Positions 21,001 through 48,000 of a stretch of 64,000 nt of DNA are shown in pieces. The stretch is from Elusimicrobiota bacterium (GTDB lineage: Bacteria; Elusimicrobiota; Elusimicrobia; Elusimicrobiales; UBA9959), in contig JAINCQ010000037.1 in the NCBI GenBank assembly GCA_036574205.1, positions 68,669-132,668 of the forward strand. The letters are read 5' to 3'. Every line of letters starts with the position of its first letter. The first letter of the stretch is position 1. The position numbers are program-made.

Positions 21001-24000
21001 CAAATTGCGCCACAAAATCAGGTATTACCCTGAAGAAAGCCGCGTCATTATAAAAACCGTTTTTAACAAGGTTGTAAAACCTATCAACCCCTTTTGGCGC
21101 CCATTCTCTTTTAACTTCTACTACAAAAACGCCTTTTGTTGTAGTGAATCTTACTTTAAAGGCATCAGGGGCTGTTTCATTCATTGTTTGCGGATTTAAT
21201 AATTTTTCCATATTCACTCCATTTAATTTATAATTTTCACTTTCAATTTTTATAATGCTTTTTTCTTTATATTCTTTGCAGGCAAAAAAAGATAATATTA
21301 AAACAGCGATTGCTATTTTTCTCATATTATCCTCCAATTATTTTAAAGCATATTCAATTTTTATTTAAGTCTTTATGTTCTACTATAAAACTTCCAATTA
21401 CAGAATAAAAGACAGTTGCCTTAATAAGGTCCGATATCGGCATTTGTTCATTCACGCTATGCGCGTATATTTCATTAGCAGGGCCAAATCCAACAGATGG
21501 TATTCCGAGCCGTCCAGCTGATGCTACACCATTTGTTGAGAATACCCATTTACCAACTTTAGGTTTTTTCTCAAGCGCAAAATTTGCAGCTTTTATTGCT
21601 GACTGAACAAGATGATGTTTTTCTTCTAAAACCCATGTCGGAAAATATTTCTCCTGCTTTACCTTTAATCCTTTCCAGCTTGTTGCCTCATAATTTAGTA
21701 TTTCTACCTTTGCCTTATACTTTTTTACAGAAGGTAGATTTTTTATTTGCTTTATTGCAAGATCTTTATCCTCACCTTTTGTAAGTCTTCTATCTAAATA
21801 TATTACAGCTTCATCTGGAATAGCATTTAAGGATGGAGTCTTAGATTCTTCATATGTTACAGCAATGGTTCCTTTTCCAAGAAAGTGGTCATTTTTTAAT
21901 TTTTCATTTAATTTTGTTACTTCTTGAATAATATGGCTCATTTTAAATAGAGCATTATCTCCTCTTTCTGGCGCTGAAGCATGGCAGGATTTCCCCTTTA
22001 CCGTTATTTTTATTTCCATCCTTCCCCTGTGTCCTCTATAAACCGAAAGATTTGTCGGTTCAGTTAATATTACATAATCGGGTTTTATTTTTTCTTTATT
22101 TACTATGTGAAGAATTGGAAGTCCATCACAATCTTCTTCCTGAACCGAACCTACAGCTATGTAGGTATATTTATTTGCAAGTCCAAGCTCTTTAATTATT
22201 TTTCCAGCATAAACCATTGAAACCATTGAAAGCTTTTGATCACTTGCTCCCCTTCCCCAGATTTTGTTATCTTTTATAATTCCTTCAAATGGCTTTATTT
22301 TCCACTCTTTAGGATCTCCAACGCCAACTGTGTCTATATGAGCGTCTAACATTACTTTCATTTTTCCATTTCCAATAAATCCGAGAATGTTTCCCATTTT
22401 ATCTATTTTTACTTTATCAAAACCACAGATTATCATTTCTTTTTCAATTAATCTGACAAGGTCCCCTTCTTTTGTTGAAAAACTTGGAGTTTTAATCATT
22501 TTAACAGCAAAATTAATTATGTCTTTTTTATATTTTTCAGCTAATTCTTTTACTTTTTTATCCATTTGATTCCTCCATATATTCTTATGTTATTATACTA
22601 AATTTGTTTGATATAATTTTTATTGATGAAATCAATAAGATTTGATATAATTTTTATTGATGAGATCAATAAGGATAGCTTTTTTTGGAAAAGGTGGAAT
22701 AGGAAAAACGACTATAGCCGCAAATTTTTCTGCATATATTGCAAGTCTCGGCAAAAAGGTTCTTGTAGTTGGTTGTGATCCCAAAATGGATAGTACAAAG
22801 CTACTTATGGGAAAAGAATTCATATCTCCCTTTATGGAGAAAATGAATCCTCACTCTACAAAAAACGATATAATTTCTAATATATATAAATCTCCGATTA
22901 TTAAAAATCTTGATTGTATTGAGGTCGGTGGTCCAAAGCCCGGGGTAGGTTGTGCTGGTGTAGGGATAGGTATGATGATAGATATGCTTGGCAAATATAG
23001 TATAGCTGATGAATATGATTTTGTTATTTTTGATGTGCTTGGAGATATAGTATGTGGTGGTTTCGCAGGTCCTTTAAGAAGTGGGTTTGCTGATATTATG
23101 ATTATAGTAACATCTGATGAAATTTCTTCACTTTATGCTGCAAATAGACTTATCAGTATGGCTCAAAAGTATAAAGAAAATGGTATAAAAAGAGTTTGTT
23201 TGATAGCTAATTTAAAAGAGGGAGGGGATGTAAAAAAAATTACAGCTTTCTCAGAGCTTTGCAATGTTGATGTAATATCAACAATAAATTATGATATTAA
23301 AGTAAGGACACTTTCCGATAAAAATAAACTTGCGGTATTTTTCTTAAAGGAGAGCGGATTTTATCGCGAAATTAAAAGAATTTACAATGAGGTATCTAAT
23401 AGAAAAATAAAAAATATTGATTTCAAATCCCTTGATTCCTCTACTTTTACAGAACTTTCTATTAATAATTTTGAAGTTTTAAGCAATAAAGTTCATCAGT
23501 TAAAAGAAAACTTTTTTAATTATTCATCTATTGATGAGGTGGTGAAAAAAAATAAAATATCTTTTCGTGGAATTTATGCTGAAGGTCAACTATTGTTTTC
23601 ATTCAATTATGGCTTTCAAAAAATAAGCTTTATCATTATGTCCTATTCAGTTAGCAAAGGTAAATTAGATTATAAAGACTGGTTTATCTGCTTTTCCCCT
23701 GGAACACCATATAATCAACAGATAAGATTTTCAGAAAAACTTAATGAGATCAAAAAATCCTTCTCAAATTTTAAATATGAAGAAATAGAAAAACATTTTA
23801 TTGGTAACAAAATGCATTTCAGGAAAAATCTGGAAAAGGATAATATTTCAGTGAAGATTATCTCATCAAGACCGTTAACAGTCGGCGAAAAATGGCATAA
23901 GTTTATATATACTGAGGGCTTTACTAAGATATTTATTCCTCCGGGAGTAGTTATTATAGAACATGGAGATATAGAATGTAAATTTAGCGATGGCGTTGGA

Positions 24001-45000: not shown

Positions 45001-48000
45001 GCAGCCTCAAGAAGATCTGATTTTTTATTGTCATTACATTCACTTAATGATTTATTATTGCATAGCTTATCTATTCCTAATTTCATTTTCTGGCACAAAG
45101 TAAAATAATCATTAACACCTAATGCTTTAAGTACCTCTCCTTTTTGTCTTCCGGTTTCCTCTTCAATTTTATAATAACCCAAGCAATTGTTTATATTTGT
45201 GTCTTTGCCTATTAAATATTCCTTCATCTTATAGGTATAATAACTCTCAACACACATTTTTCTCATTTCTTCTGGCAGAGTGTTACAATATGCTACATCC
45301 TTTTTTGCGATTGCAACACATGTGATGTAATCAGTTAAAAGAGTTATTATATTGTTTGTTTCTTCTTGAGAAAATGTGTATGACATCTTTTTGCTTTTTT
45401 TTGTTCCCGGTCCCCATATATTTCCATAATCTTCTATTATATTTTTTGGTGTTTTGTTACATCCTGTAACTTGTATATAAGTGGGCGTAAGAGTGGTGTT
45501 CAAAGAATTCTGTAGATAAGTAGTTGAAAGAAGGGGTAGCAAAGCATCCTGAGATGGTGGATTTTTTGTTTCTCTATCTACTTCTTTATTTGCTTCTCTC
45601 GGTATCTCCCTCCCAAACGGGATTTCCTGTTTGAGCGGTTGCGGAACAATTGGTTTCTCTTTTGGTTTTGTTAAAAATTTTATTACTATTAAAATCGCTA
45701 TTAAGACTACTGTAATAAGAACGATATATTTTCTCATCCTACCTCCATTTATCTTCGCCAAGTGCTGATATAAGAGCTTTTGTTACTATCAACTGAGATA
45801 TCCTGAAATTTTTTTTGGCAAGATCTATTCTGCATTGTTCGTTCAAAGCCTCATTCATTAGCTTATCAAAAATATTTTCGCAGTCATTGCCTTTTATTTC
45901 GGCTATAATAGTTTTTTTATTATCATAAAGTTTTATCTGTCCAGTATTATCTATTATATTCTTTGCTATATTTAAAGCTTCATAACTATAAACCTTCTTA
46001 TCTATTTCAAACCTCATATGTTCATCTCCTCTTTTTCTCTTGCCCATCGCTCTAAAAATTTCGCTTTTTTATTATCGTTTAAGAACTCAAAAATAATATC
46101 CATTATCCCCATAAATATTTTACATCTTTCAGATGTAGCATTATTCCCCCAGATATTATTTTGGGCTTCATAATTTATGACCGGACACACGCCACAGTAA
46201 GGTTTATAAACACACCTTGAGCATTGAATCTGATTTTCAAGATTAGATGATATAGCGCAAACTTTTGTTGTAGGAGAGGATATAATTTGTTTATATGAGT
46301 TTTTATTTAGATTTCCAAGTTTAAAAAAATCATTTCCTTCCCATCCAAGCATTCTCCCTTCATCGCAGGTATATATATCTCCATTGTAATTATACGCTAA
46401 TTGTCCCAAACCTGCTCCACATGGACATCTTAAATCCACAAAACCGCTATCTTTGCTATTTATTATTTTATGGACAATCATCTGGGCGGTTTTTTCCTTT
46501 ATTTCAACGCCTTTTGCGTTAAGTTCTATTATATATAAAAGTGCTGTTTTATAGAATTTCAGAAATGATTCTGAATCATATCCTATCTTATCCCATAATT
46601 TTCTGGCAAAACCTATTGGGGAAAGCGGTCTTATAAATATAGTCTCAAGCCCATTTTTTACGTACTCATCTAATATTTCTTGGGGATATTTGAGTGATTC
46701 TCTTGAGACTGTTGTCAGAGCAGAGGGCTTAAAAATTCTGTAAGCTAAATTATGTTGTGTGTCATGTTTTTGATTGAAATATTTAATCCATTTTACTGCA
46801 ATATCGTATGAACTAGCTGCAGTGTATATTCTGTTTTTATTATGGAGTTCTTTCGGTCCGTCCAGCGATGTGCATAAAGAGACCTCATTTTCAAGCAAAA
46901 ATTCTGCTTTTTCCTCGTCCATAAGTGAAAAATTGGTTACCACAGAAAGATTTAACCTCTTGTCTTTTTTCTTTTCTATATCTCTTGAATATTTTATAGT
47001 TTTTTTCACAATCTCCCAGTTATATAGTGGCTCGCCCCCTTGAAACTCTATAGTTATTGTTGGGGAAGTTGATGAAAAAGCCATATCCACTGCTTTTTTA
47101 GCCGTAGTATAATTCATATCGGTTTTTGTGTCTTTTTCTCCAATAGCCTGGCTCTGGCAATAAACGCATTTATGGTTACACCTTAAAGTTGCCACTATTA
47201 TATGCAAAGCAGGTCCAAAAAATAGATATGAGTTTGAATTCTTCCACCTTGAAAATATATCCTCAAAATCTAAATTGTCGCTTATAAATCCTTTTGACGC
47301 AAGTTCGTTGTATATTGCTTCCCCTTTCTTGATCTTTCCGTCAACAAATTTTTTAAATTCTGACTCTTTTAGCATAACGTAATACCCAAAATCGTTTGTC
47401 ACAAGTATTTTATCTTTTATTTTTTTCCATCTTATATGAATTATATCTGATTTACTTTTTTGATTTGTTTCCGTATTTTTCTTCCCATGTTTTTTTGATT
47501 TCATTTGATTTCTCCTCTTCCATTTCCTTTTTTAATTCTTCCTCAACCTCTTTTATCAGTTTTTCTAACTCCTTTTCTTCCTCTGTCGATAGTGTATCCG
47601 GCGAAACAGGGGTTTGAGGCGAGTATGTTATAGCTTTTCGTATAAGATATTCTCTAAGTTTTAAGCTATCATTCATTATCCTTTGTCTTAAAATCTCATC
47701 TCTTAACTCAAGTTCTATATTTTTCTTAAGTTTTTTTATATCAATCTTTGAATCAGATATTGGTTTCAACTCCGCTTTTATAAAATTCTTTTCCGTTGAA
47801 AGTAAAACATAGAATTGAGAAGTAAGTGTATAAAAAACATATCTTACTGCCTCAATTGGATATTTATTTAAATCATACTTTAGTGTTATTTTATTCAATA
47901 TTCCTCCTAATTAGGCATACCAAATCTGCAGCACACAAGCCATCCTGCTATACATTTAATCCCTCCACGATTACCAATTAGGCATACCAAATCTGCAGCA

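Follow-up and report, generated by a model that had tools for sequence, protein, structure and literature searches.

The window, a 64,000-nt stretch of a hot-spring Elusimicrobia genome (1.85 Mb, 95%-complete) whose coordinates are used throughout, carries a radical-SAM cluster that probably encodes an expanded HXS-type (HxsA4-type) peptide maturation pathway, in which the neighbouring group VI nitrogenase paralog would serve as an optional tailoring reductase. The 'extensive radical SAM suite' beside this paralog is best read as an HXS-type pathway of increased size whose target would be a ribosomal peptide with His/Ser repeats. If this is true, an enigmatic nitrogenase-like enzyme serves a peptide pathway and not the synthesis of a pigment-type cofactor. 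The evidence consists of observed gene content, conservation, co-location and co-occurrence. The first-pass annotation had already proposed an enlarged HXS pathway, perhaps with a diphthamide component, and it is partly confirmed, with corrections: the pathway itself is supported by homology, synteny in 10 relatives, a leader/core design common to two phyla and co-occurrence, but the diphthamide component is not.

Organisation of the locus

The operon spans 27031-47898 on the minus strand and, as previously described, comprises 21 tightly spaced genes, with gaps or overlaps of at most 9 nt:

26632..27552 (-), HxsC-like radical SAM broken by an in-frame TAA (27031-27033), one frame either side of the stop
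27512..28171 (-), TP_methylase-fold protein (accessory; Pfam TP_methylase 42.1 bits)
28168..29322 (-), HxsC-like radical SAM (core; best family HxsC, 95 bits; 41-65% identical orthologs in 8 relatives)
29319..30404 (-), PapB-like radical SAM/SPASM-type (core; PapB 131.3 bits; positional orthologs in relatives)
30350..31270 (-), HxsC4-like radical SAM (core; HxsC4 146.3 bits; orthologs at 57-75% identity)
31267..32472 (-), A24-family (FlaK/prepilin-peptidase-like) intramembrane aspartyl peptidase, 401 aa (core; motif, Pfam matches of orthologs, Atlas, AF2)
32429..33319 (-), HxsC-type radical SAM (core; HxsC 169 bits, cut-off 267.9)
33309..34685 (-), HxsB radical SAM/SPASM copy 2 (TIGR03978 461.2 bits, above the cut-off of 370)
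34682..35611 (-), HxsC4-like radical SAM (HxsC4 141.8 bits)
35580..36953 (-), HxsB-like radical SAM/SPASM copy 3 (TIGR03978 316.5 bits, below 370)
36955..37977 (-), HxsC-like radical SAM (core; HxsC 99 bits; orthologs in relatives)
37980..39626 (-), PEP-utilising/PPDK_N phosphotransferase-type enzyme (accessory; Pfam PEP-utilizers 49 bits, PPDK_N 43.5 bits)
39626..40330 (-), Dph6/DUF71-type N-type ATP pyrophosphatase (accessory; Pfam Diphthami_syn_2 59 bits, 4.8e-16)
40323..42293 (-), B12-binding radical SAM (accessory; KedN5-type 95.9 bits; Pfam B12-binding and Radical_SAM)
42280..43392 (-), HxsC-like radical SAM (HxsC 115 bits)
43355..44419 (-), PapB-like radical SAM (PapB 120.7 bits, HxsB 93.5 bits)
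44429..44740 (-), HxsA4 precursor, 103 aa (NF038313 77.4 bits, above the cut-off of 55)
44730..45761 (-), 343-aa protein with N-terminal membrane anchor and 12 Cys (core; positional orthologs in 9 relatives)
45739..46047 (-), 102-aa small protein, weakly HxsD-like (core; TIGR03976 17 bits, E 0.0045)
46014..47504 (-), HxsB radical SAM/SPASM copy 1 (TIGR03978 510.3 bits, cut-off 370)
47452..47898 (-), HxsD, 148 aa (TIGR03976 41.1 bits, E 1.7e-10, cut-off 50)

The NCBIfam scores reported earlier for HxsB, HxsC, HxsC4, PapB-like, KedN5-type, HxsA4, HxsD and Dph6 were reproduced. No RNA run was found to contain this locus. Curated cut-offs are exceeded by two HxsB proteins and the HxsA4 precursor; the earlier caveat that most HxsC-like matches fall short applies to all HxsC-like proteins, and additionally to HxsD and the third HxsB. 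The interval originally assigned to the system, 22660..47898, does contain its genes, but the system is wider, reaching an upstream gene and a four-gene satellite:

47971..48669 (-), 232-aa secreted or anchored protein (orthologs upstream of HxsD in 7/10 relatives)
57731..58579 (+), satellite HxsC-like radical SAM (HxsC 89.5 bits)
58566..61195 (+), satellite triad: radical SAM (305 aa), intact U32-family protein (305 aa) and a 264-aa unknown

In the 232-aa protein a T-T-Y-Y-P-x-P-Y-G-G-Y motif is invariant, and its AF2 model is poor. The satellite (57731-61195) adds two HxsC-like radical SAM genes and an intact U32 gene. Orthologs of its first gene (42-45% identity) lie inside the main operon of relatives: in G004, G005 and G025 they immediately follow the 28168-29322 ortholog, and the one in G012 is some 1.6 kb farther downstream. 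The orthologous triad stands beside the fused NifH-NifD-like gene NflHD and its partner NflK in G011 and G012 and twice in G056, and G025 has a radical SAM-U32 pair.

Radical SAM enzymes

A Radical_SAM domain (Pfam) and a CxxxCxxC motif are present in 13 of the 21 operon genes, as first counted, but one of these is broken. Its open reading frame, read to the stop, covers 27031-27552 (173 aa), and the frame runs on past the TAA to 26632; translated through the stop, the gene shares 57% identity over 257 aa with its intact ortholog in G010. Because the TAA aligns to a Tyr of this 339-aa protein and the C-terminus cannot be aligned, the operon holds 12 intact radical SAM genes and one degraded one. 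The best NCBIfam family of every radical SAM protein is HxsB, HxsC, HxsC4 or PapB, the sole exception being the broken gene, for which HxsC and a tungsten-cofactor maturase model score equally. The paralogs share 25-45% identity among themselves versus 45-75% with positional orthologs of other genera, and on this comparison they appear to be ancient and non-redundant.

Orthologs of the HxsC4-like gene at 34682..35611 (blastp 293-318 bits) adjoin the nitrogenase-like (Nfl) genes in L035, L042, L044, L095, L101, L103 and G009. These Nfl-adjoining orthologs occur in both other Elusimicrobiota and Myxococcota.

The HxsA4 precursor and its core partners

In the precursor, a basic N-terminus precedes the leader motif Y-L-N-S-E-E-G-K. 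A hydrophobic segment extending to A-S-A comes next, followed by H-T-N-Y-F and a core of 12 consecutive H-x-S units (13 His), mostly S-H-G, before a C-terminal R-G-G-W-C. The approximately 17 repeats claimed previously are thus not recovered, yet the run is indeed unique, being the only one of at least three consecutive H-x-S in six frames of the genome. The aromatic-L-x-S-E-E leader expression matches 24 of 29 HxsA4 sequences from Elusimicrobiota and Myxococcota, and the other five carry, by eye, Y-L-x-S-E-E-like variants; repeat number ranges from 7 to 22. The hydrophobic segment is found in 11/12 Elusimicrobiota-type sequences versus 1/17 from Myxococcota. By analogy with E. coli HxsA, HxsA4 would be the substrate of the pathway.

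The gene formerly listed as a membrane protein encodes a FlaK/prepilin-type A24 aspartyl peptidase: D39 and W-P-A-G-D112-x-K are invariant across 13 orthologs, five of which match Pfam Peptidase_A24, Atlas A24 clusters score 0.94-0.95, and its AF2 model aligns with FlaK (3s0x) at Z 11.4. Among five Myxococcota genomes an A24 peptidase is matched in two, in neither case near Hxs genes. Additionally, the 102-aa protein has orthologs in 8 relatives and lacks BLASTP similarity to the 148-aa HxsD, and the 343-aa protein has no match in Pfam, NCBIfam, PHROG or Atlas.

Conservation and accessory genes

HxsB scores above its cut-off in 55 of 61 sampled family genomes (44/48 of high quality) and HxsA4 is detected at E<=1e-5 in 51/61, so that presence in every genome of the family, as once stated, is an overstatement; the cluster is nonetheless near-universal and syntenic, occurring in 13/13 genera, and core gene order is kept in 10 relatives from 9 further genera.

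The Dph6-like, TP_methylase, PEP-utiliser and B12-radical SAM genes are accessory, and G008 has a 14-gene core without them. Among the 10 relatives, the TP_methylase-fold and B12-radical SAM genes have orthologs in G010 only, the Dph6-like gene in G010 and G013, and the PEP-utiliser a weak match in G013 only. The TP_methylase-fold protein, one of two in the window, seems nearest to precorrin methyltransferases (NCBIfam CbiE/CobI, 20-23 bits), and the best PDB match given earlier, CbiF, returned at the same value (2cbf, E 0.015). PDB yielded no Dph5 chain for it at E<=10.

Association of the nitrogenase-like genes with the Hxs system

Convergent to the operon, and on the opposite strand as noted before, lie the following genes:

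22657..25128 (+), NflHD, fused NifH-like Fe-protein/ATPase and NifD-like protein, 823 aa (Fer4_NifH 204 bits, Oxidored_nitro 36 bits)
25073..26359 (+), NflK-like partner, 428 aa (Pfam Oxidored_nitro 125 bits)
26356..26763 (+), U32-family gene remnant, 135 aa (Pfam Peptidase_U32, covering just positions 2-91 of a 233-position profile)

The Pfam domains of NflHD (Fer4_NifH 6-267, Oxidored_nitro 430-770) and of the following gene agree with the fused NifH-NifD-like and NifK-like assignments made earlier. The P-loop, Cys99 and Cys133 of NflHD are invariant in 7 fused relatives, and D39, C49, H61, D62 and H400 of the NflK-like protein are conserved across 37 homologues. NflHD clusters with GWF2_62_30 proteins, separate from true NifH, its NifH domain forming a long, compositionally odd branch. 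The pair's neighbours are the broken radical SAM gene and the U32 remnant, whose full-length orthologs measure about 311-317 aa, and the Nfl genes may be decaying in this genome.

In the family, 41/61 genomes lack Nfl, as do both genomes of the same genus, which agrees with the earlier remark that these genes are mostly missing from relatives. They are facultative, but leaving their role open was too cautious, since where present they seem, from co-location and co-occurrence in two phyla, to be tied to the Hxs system. NflHD/NflK lie inside the Hxs operon on the same strand in G009 and between HxsB and HxsA4 in the Myxococcales MAG L103, and of the 20 family genomes that carry Nfl, 10 have an HxsB gene no more than 16 kb away from it. 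Hxs hallmarks occur within 10 kb of 13/37 Nfl loci versus 0/43 ordinary NifH loci. Moreover, HxsB is present in 13/15 Nfl-bearing Elusimicrobiota genomes versus 18/236 others, and HxsA4 in 29/31 NifH-like-positive Myxococcota genomes versus 26/120 others, the Nfl class in these counts being set by score and possibly taking in other NifH-like groups; related genomes are non-independent, and the counts therefore inflate significance. Nfl, HxsB and HxsA4 are widely separated in several Myxococcota genomes, and all five with 'isolated' Nfl encode HxsB and HxsA4 elsewhere.

Alternative explanations

The same maturation machinery could instead have an antiphage role like that of the canonical HXS system of four genes, with envelope-anchored, matured HxsA4 blocking phage DNA entry. 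According to PMC13128918, the canonical system protects E. coli through matured periplasmic HxsA, each HxS repeat being needed. Although the hydrophobic segment of HxsA4 in this lineage is signal- or anchor-like and the cluster encodes its own putative leader peptidase, we regard such a role as unlikely: the cluster's near-universal, syntenic distribution contrasts with the occurrence of the canonical system in 27% of Klebsiella genomes, its flanking genes are housekeeping (DNA ligase, NusB, PurH-type, lysyl-tRNA-synthetase-type), and PADLOC returns only generic radical SAM-level matches. Furthermore, 16/17 Myxococcota HxsA4 lack the hydrophobic segment, Pfam finds no peptidoglycan-binding domain in HxsA4, and 13-15 radical SAM genes far exceed the canonical system's need.

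According to the published reading, the Nfl pair reduces a tetrapyrrole or other small-molecule cofactor decorated by the radical SAM suite and TP_methylase-fold enzymes, HxsA4 being unrelated or a His-rich metal chaperone; a tetrapyrrole was predicted for the group VI paralog, and the related nitrogenase-like groups DPOR, COR and CfbCD reduce tetrapyrroles (bioRxiv 10.1101/765248; PMC13474568). Such chemistry would equally fit the two TP_methylase-fold genes with their CbiF match and the B12-binding radical SAM, and HxsC-like proteins also match NirJ/AhbD models (38-78 bits). A covalent +8 Da change on E. coli HxsA with the full HXS system expressed, reported in PMC13128918, counts against this reading. 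We consider the tetrapyrrole reading weak and quite unlikely, given that neither HemB (ALAD) nor HemC (porphobilinogen deaminase) was found in this 95%-complete genome, that the TP_methylase and B12-radical SAM genes lie outside the conserved core, that no radical SAM protein has a tetrapyrrole enzyme as best family, and that Nfl co-occurs with HxsA4 and HxsB in two phyla.

A diphthamide-like change of HxsA4 histidines, in which a Dph5-like methylase and a Dph6-like amidase would work alongside radical SAM enzymes, as the first-pass annotation had tentatively suggested, is weak and highly improbable: HxsA4 is a His-rich candidate substrate, the Dph6/DUF71-type protein is encoded (PDB 3rjz, 1.7e-8) and the TP_methylase fold is also that of Dph5, but the genome again lacks any Dph2 family match, the Dph6 score is 65.8 against a cut-off of 197, the TP_methylase protein matches CbiE/CobI/CbiF models, and the core of G008, G005, G004, G012 and G025 contains neither gene.

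Proposed pathway and comparison with canonical HXS

For the expanded HXS-type pathway, we infer every chemical step, the peptidase cleavage and the reductase substrate from family memberships and gene order. Ribosomal HxsA4, with its leader (basic N-terminus, aromatic-L-x-S-E-E-G-K), lineage-specific hydrophobic segment and 12-unit core, would be handed by small HxsD-type proteins to radical SAM enzymes that diverged long ago and form a constant set (three HxsB-type SPASM, six to nine HxsC-type and two PapB-like); these would change the repeat units stepwise. Lineage-specific extras, namely the B12-radical SAM methylase, Dph6-like ATP pyrophosphatase, PEP-utiliser-type phosphotransferase, TP_methylase-fold and U32-type enzymes, may then tailor the product further, and the core-encoded A24-type intramembrane aspartyl peptidase would cut off the leader at the membrane. 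NflHD and the NflK-like protein would together act in this pathway as an optional low-potential reductase powered by ATP, directed at a modified intermediate and not at a tetrapyrrole.

PMC13128918 reports that N-terminal cleavage of HxsA in E. coli depends on HxsB, on HxsC and on HxsD, that HxsC binds HxsD, and that the +8 Da change sits on one SHRSS unit of cleaved periplasmic HxsA; its authors, unable to recover HxsA from the hxsB/C/D deletion strains, could not check whether this change depends on those genes. Canonical HXS consists of four genes, HxsDBCA, whereas the cluster described here employs 13-15 radical SAM genes.

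Operon structure and gene families

On the evidence of its genes, the cluster encodes a genuine HXS-type system for peptide maturation, conserved and of unusual size, and the group VI nitrogenase paralog (Nfl) encoded beside it is most likely an optional member of that system. A single sequencing run is listed for the locus, a DNA run from a hot-spring metagenome that probably is its source, and the listing shows no RNA run. Within the window (~29% G+C; host genome 1.85 Mb, 95% complete), the following features carry this reading.

22657-25128, plus strand: NflHD, an 823-aa NifH-NifD-like fusion protein
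25073-26359, plus strand: NflK, a NifK-like protein
27031-47898, minus strand: main operon of 21 genes, with a core of 14 genes running from HxsD to the last HxsC-like gene (28168-29322)
31267-32472, minus strand: 401-aa membrane protein, read as an A24-type peptidase
44429-44740, minus strand: HxsA4, a 103-aa precursor
57731-61195, plus strand: satellite of four genes, comprising two HxsC-like radical SAM (rSAM) genes, an intact U32-family gene (UbiU-like, 69 bits) and a gene for a 264-aa unknown protein

The first-pass annotation had described a 21-gene operon, and 21 consecutive minus-strand genes are indeed found at 27031-47898, with gaps or overlaps of at most 9 nt. The operon opens with HxsD-HxsB-small protein-unknown-HxsA4, after which come another 16 genes, while NflHD and the NifK-like gene, assigned by Pfam, lie on the opposite strand. 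The accompanying count of 13 rSAM genes stands as far as Pfam Radical_SAM and the CxxxCxxC motif (13/13) are concerned, but the last of these genes is broken: its 173-aa and 118-aa frames are, as read from the assembly, one frame split by a TAA. This stop aligns opposite a Tyr in the intact 339-aa ortholog, the C-terminus is no longer alignable, and a 135-aa U32-family remnant adjoins the gene. Where the nif-like genes meet the operon (26356-27552), the sequence shows signs of decay: the plus-strand U32 remnant overlaps the tail of the rSAM gene that holds the in-frame TAA (27031-27033).

The previously listed NCBIfam scores were reproduced. Two HxsB copies (TIGR03978) score 510.3 and 461.2 bits, over the cut-off of 370, and a third scores 316.5, under it; HxsA4 (NF038313) reaches 77.4 bits, above its cut-off of 55; HxsD scores 41.1 bits (cut-off 50; E 1.7e-10) with profile positions 2-85 of 90 covered. 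The two PapB-like genes score 131 and 121 bits, and one gene matches the KedN5-type B12 rSAM family at 96 bits. The curated HxsC cut-off of 267.9 is not reached by any gene (best score 169), the HxsC4 scores are 146 and 142 bits against a cut-off of 500, and four further rSAM genes have HxsC as their best family at 95-115 bits; despite these sub-cut-off scores, HxsC or HxsC4 is the top family for six of the seven HxsC-like genes.

Other proteins of the cluster stand further from known families. BLASTP finds the 102-aa small protein and the 148-aa HxsD dissimilar, and the 343-aa protein has no Pfam, NCBIfam or PHROGs match and no named Atlas relative (Atlas model pLDDT 0.52). Upstream of the operon, a 232-aa protein (47971-48669, minus strand) represents a family with a signal or anchor segment, an invariant S-E-x-L-x-x-T-T-Y-Y-P-x-P-Y-G-G-Y motif in the ortholog alignment, V-G-I-G-T-type repeats and, at the C-terminus, a C...C...CC pattern. 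The protein has no match to a known family, and AF2 modelled it poorly (pLDDT 46). Directly upstream of the cluster lies a homologue of the McsB-like protein arginine kinases (48731-49684, minus strand; ATP-gua_Ptrans 44 bits; NCBIfam 84 bits, far under the cut-off), which is kept at this place only in the same-genus genome G010.

The coordinates first assigned to the system were too narrow, for it reaches on to the satellite at 57731-61195. In three relatives (G004, G005, G025) an ortholog of the first satellite rSAM gene directly follows the final gene of the main operon's core, and in a fourth (G012) it lies slightly further downstream. Moreover, G011, G056 (twice) and G012 have the rSAM-U32-unknown triad adjoining their nitrogenase-like genes, and G025 has an rSAM-U32 pair. 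With the satellite genes, the window holds 15 rSAM genes of the system, at three places.

Conservation of the core and accessory genes

In the family the cluster is nearly universal and keeps its synteny, although its presence in every genome, as originally claimed, is an overstatement: HxsB scores over the cut-off in 55 of 61 sampled genomes (13 genera), or 44 of the 48 of high quality. HxsB copies usually number two or three on one contig, and HxsA4 is present in 51/61 genomes. At the level of the phylum, HxsB is limited to a few families: it was found in 18/18 genomes of the family that includes the window's genome (f1), and in 3/4, 8/10, 1/71 and 0/84 genomes of families f5, f7, f2 and f14, respectively.

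When the proteins of the window are set against ORFs from ten relatives, a kept gene order emerges. Its first half reads 232-aa secreted protein-HxsD-HxsB-102-aa protein-343-aa anchored Cys-rich protein-HxsA4, and after a variable insert it continues as HxsC-like-HxsB-like-HxsC4-like-HxsB-HxsC-401-aa membrane protein-HxsC4-like-PapB-like-HxsC-like. Even the smallest genome (G008, 1.4 Mb) retains 14 genes, from HxsD through the final HxsC-like gene, and is without the Dph6-like, PEP-utiliser, B12-rSAM and TP_methylase genes. These four are accessory tailoring genes, confined to the window's genus except in G013, which has a Dph6-like gene and a weak PEP-utiliser match. The rSAM paralogs, in turn, are probably old, non-redundant members of one pathway, because they are only 25-45% identical among themselves and 45-75% identical to their positional orthologs.

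The HxsA4 precursor and a candidate peptidase

HxsA4 carries 12 consecutive H-x-S units rather than the roughly 17 first counted, and the claim that its repeat is unique is borne out, this being the only run of at least three units across all six frames of the genome. On the leader side, the precursors of the family have in common a basic N-terminus followed by F/Y-L-x-S-E-E-G-K, a hydrophobic stretch that closes with small-x-small, and H-S/T-N-Y-F; the core comprises 7-22 H-x-S units, mostly S-H-G, and the C-terminus is R-G-G-W-C or an aromatic residue. Fifteen Myxococcota HxsA4 genes have the same leader motif and (S-H-G)n-W core, mostly with the hydrophobic stretch absent. A regular expression for the leader matched 24/29 HxsA4 sequences, and the five misses are close variants by eye. 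In these sequence features HxsA4 has the leader/core layout typical of ribosomal peptides that undergo modification; no peptidoglycan-binding domain was detected in it with Pfam.

Most Myxococcota precursors (L109-L123) place a Cys at the very start of the repeats (Q/E-H-C-S-H-G...) and end in G-S-W or G-Q-W, unlike those of Elusimicrobiales, which end in R-G-G-W-C or G-S-Y. HxsA4 occurs in 55/151 sampled Myxococcota genomes, about a third. A collagen-like helix was considered from the G-X-Y periodicity of (G-S-H)n and was set aside, its basis being weak Collagen/Scl matches only.

By analogy, the HxsA of Escherichia coli provides an experimental precedent for the putative substrate role of HxsA4. 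There, N-terminal processing of HxsA needs HxsB, HxsC and HxsD each, HxsC binds HxsD, and the cleaved periplasmic HxsA bears +8 Da on one SHRSS unit; HxsA was not recoverable from the deletion strains in which the dependence of the +8 Da change on these proteins would have been assessed (PMC13128918).

What had been listed as a membrane protein is now read as an intramembrane aspartyl peptidase of the A24 type that serves specifically this cluster. In 13 orthologs, D39 and W-P-A-G-D112-x-K (K114) are invariant, in keeping with the two catalytic Asp of A24 peptidases, the second within a G-D motif. Five of these orthologs match Pfam Peptidase_A24 (PF01478; best E 3.7e-6), the window copy being without a match, and the protein-atlas neighbours are A24 clusters (scores 0.94-0.95). 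The AlphaFold model (pLDDT 80.9) has as its top VIA-align match the preflagellin GxGD peptidase FlaK (3s0x_B; rmsd 3.4, 171/186 residues; next match Z 6.5), with a Z of 11.4 to be taken with care because the protein is helical. Foldseek of the model against PDB returned nothing at E<=0.001, and a PDB sequence-profile search with the ortholog alignment returned nothing relevant and did not find FlaK.

The hydrophobic stretch of HxsA4, found in 11/12 Elusimicrobiota-type sequences vs 1/17 Myxococcota ones, goes with the lineage that has the A24-type peptidase in its cluster, and HxsA4 is a putative substrate of this enzyme. Since the peptidase profile matched in two of five Myxococcota genomes and neither match is near Hxs genes, the peptidase is not claimed for Myxococcota.

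Nitrogenase-like genes and their association with Hxs genes

NflHD retains the nucleotide-binding loop G11-K17 and the cluster-bridging C99 and C133, all invariant in the alignment of fused proteins. The NifD/K-like partners are divergent (Oxidored_nitro 36 and 125 bits; NifD/K/E/N equivalog scores all <=37), and a search with TIGR01290 gave no NifB match in the genome. In a quick IQ-TREE phylogeny, the NifH domain groups with fused proteins of the family, that of GWF2_62_30 among them, in a clade with 100% SH-aLRT support. The clade is nested in a 45-row group that is separate from ordinary NifH and holds exclusively Elusimicrobiota, Myxococcota and a few MAGs bearing just the title 'bacterium'; where the domain belongs inside the group is unsure because the window branch is long. 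The 2020 study of this paralog mentions the GWF2_62_30 genome by name (Méheust et al., 2020). Taken together, the kept residues, the absence of NifB and the tree position suggest that NflHD fits group VI.

Earlier caution over the nif-like genes, which had left their role here open, can be relaxed, as Nfl is tied to Hxs genes where present, both by location and by co-occurrence counts. Nfl is facultative, occurring in 20/61 family genomes and in neither of the two same-genus genomes. Among the 20 carriers, it lies within 16 kb of HxsB in ten, 45 kb away in one, and on another, often short, contig in nine. In G009 it lies amid the genes of the Hxs operon and in the same orientation, and in a Myxococcales MAG (locus L103) the same-strand order is HxsD-HxsD-like-HxsB-NifH-like-NifD-like-NifK-like-HxsA4. 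Of the best 80 loci of a search with the fusion profile, 37 have a NifK-like partner and 13 of these also an Hxs hallmark no more than 10 kb away, against 0/43 ordinary NifH loci.

Co-occurrence points the same way. As raw counts in which relatedness is ignored and the Nfl class is set by score, HxsB is found in 13/15 Elusimicrobiota genomes with high-scoring Nfl vs 18/236 others (251 genomes), and HxsA4 in 29/31 NifH-like-positive Myxococcota genomes vs 26/120 without (151 genomes), the former count becoming 26/28 once three genomes reached through Nfl loci are removed. Furthermore, five Myxococcota genomes with no Hxs gene near Nfl all carry HxsB and HxsA4 elsewhere (5/5).

Some relatives have several nitrogenase-like pairs (L025/L026 in G009; L019-L021 in G012). 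In G012, a stretch of 25 kb holds three fused NflHD-NflK pairs, flanked by as many as six HxsC4-like genes. At L103, a 1204-aa 'choice-of-anchor D' surface protein (3008-6622; 198 bits) is encoded directly upstream of HxsD.

Interpretation and alternative readings

Tentatively, and with rather more reserve than conviction, Nfl can be proposed as the first nitrogenase-like reductase to act on a ribosomal peptide: the rSAM enzymes would turn the (Ser-His-Gly)n of HxsA4 into unsaturated or cross-linked imidazole-bearing units, which NflHD/NflK would reduce with ATP-driven low-potential electrons, the outcome being a polymer or cofactor of a new kind, derived from the peptide and serving in redox chemistry or metal binding. 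In the blue Y66H variant of GFP the chromophore forms from Ser-His-Gly, which makes backbone cyclisation into conjugated units chemically conceivable. More generally, candidates for the product are a peptide that binds metal or is redox-active, a cofactor, and a component of the envelope.

Tailoring of a tetrapyrrole by Nfl and the rSAM suite retains some support. Nfl is listed under 'unknown cofactor synthesis' with a tetrapyrrole guess in a 2026 Chemical Reviews article (PMC13474568, section 7), and two TP_methylase-fold genes and a B12-binding rSAM are present in the window, although both kinds of gene are accessory. HemB (PF00490) and HemC (PF01379) are unmatched in the 95%-complete genome, where precursor scavenging is possible, and the NirJ, AhbC/D and BchE models score under Hxs models for every gene, so that none is closest to a tetrapyrrole enzyme. 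Nor would this reading explain why Nfl tracks HxsA4 in two phyla. The second TP_methylase-fold ORF (20186-20632, minus strand) is short (148 aa; Pfam 31 bits) and lies 2 kb upstream of NflHD; G010, too, has a second TP_methylase gene, beside its U32 gene.

Antiphage defence, which by analogy with canonical HXS might be the role of the cluster, fits less well with near-universal, syntenic inheritance among housekeeping genes and with signal-less Myxococcota precursors. PADLOC gave no specific matches, only viperin-level rSAM similarity and a B12-rSAM match to the candidate PDC-M51A, which we read as family-level noise; together these points argue for a physiological product. Finally, the diphthamide-like modification first suggested is undercut, given that the Dph6-like gene scores 65.8 against a cut-off of 197.3, no Dph2 (PF01866) match exists in the genome, the TP_methylase protein is nearest CbiE/CobI/CbiF and not Dph5, and both genes are missing from the conserved core.

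A maturation system for HxsA4 with Nfl as an optional member ties this orphan nitrogenase branch to a defined precursor and named maturases, giving it a concrete, testable substrate hypothesis and making the open question experimentally approachable. If true, the proposal would extend nitrogenase-family chemistry to peptide substrates. Equally, HXS, so far known only as a four-gene phage defence of Proteobacteria, gains a far larger, vertically inherited relative in Elusimicrobiota and Myxococcota.

Comparison with known systems

The PqqA/PqqE/PqqD, mycofactocin MftA/B/C and proteusin (polytheonamide) pathways likewise combine a leader-core precursor, SPASM maturases and a small chaperone-like protein, and some pathways of this type include iterative B12-rSAM methylation. 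The core here differs in being a repeat of variable length, and the PqqE and MftC models score far under HxsB/HxsC, giving no family-level match. To our knowledge, nitrogenase-like reductases have no part in any RiPP or cofactor pathway.

With the A24 GxGD peptidases FlaK and PilD, the window protein shares two conserved Asp motifs and a FlaK-like fold. It differs in being too divergent for the Pfam model, in an extra C-terminal domain, and in being encoded in an rSAM peptide cluster, not with pilus or archaellum genes.

Canonical HXS (TIGR03976-03978), an antiphage system, consists of four genes, HxsD-HxsB-HxsC-HxsA, with a peptidoglycan-binding HxsA (PMC13128918), an architecture not found here. 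Shared features are a tandem H-x-S precursor, an HxsB-type SPASM protein, an HxsC-type rSAM, a small HxsD, the HxsD-HxsB start and N-terminal processing of the precursor, here putative. In place of one HxsB and one HxsC, three HxsB and 6-9 HxsC-like paralogs are encoded. The set is extended by two PapB-like proteins, an A24 peptidase and two uncharacterised envelope proteins, and optionally by nitrogenase-like, U32, B12, Dph6-like and further genes. HxsA4 measures ~100 aa; its S-H-G units, near-uniform, number 7-22, and it lacks a peptidoglycan-binding domain. Furthermore, this cluster occurs in Elusimicrobiota and Myxococcota and is near-universal in its family, whereas canonical HXS is 99.7% Pseudomonadota and patchy (PMC13128918).

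Among the matches listed in a literature search, no paper linked Hxs genes with nitrogenase-like genes, and the excerpted group VI accounts mention neither an HxS precursor nor HxsB (Méheust et al., 2020; PMC13474568). The Nfl proteins described here nevertheless belong to the same protein group as the published ones, clustering with those of GWF2_62_30, GWA2_69_24 and RBG_16_66_12 (Méheust et al., 2020), and the loci share many adjoining rSAM genes, the lack of NifB and Myxococcales carriers (Méheust et al., 2020; PMC13474568). Two differences stand out: NifH and NifD are fused in this family, and the rSAM suite of loci that the published accounts read in terms of tetrapyrrole reduction is identified here as Hxs-type, with its link to Nfl quantified.
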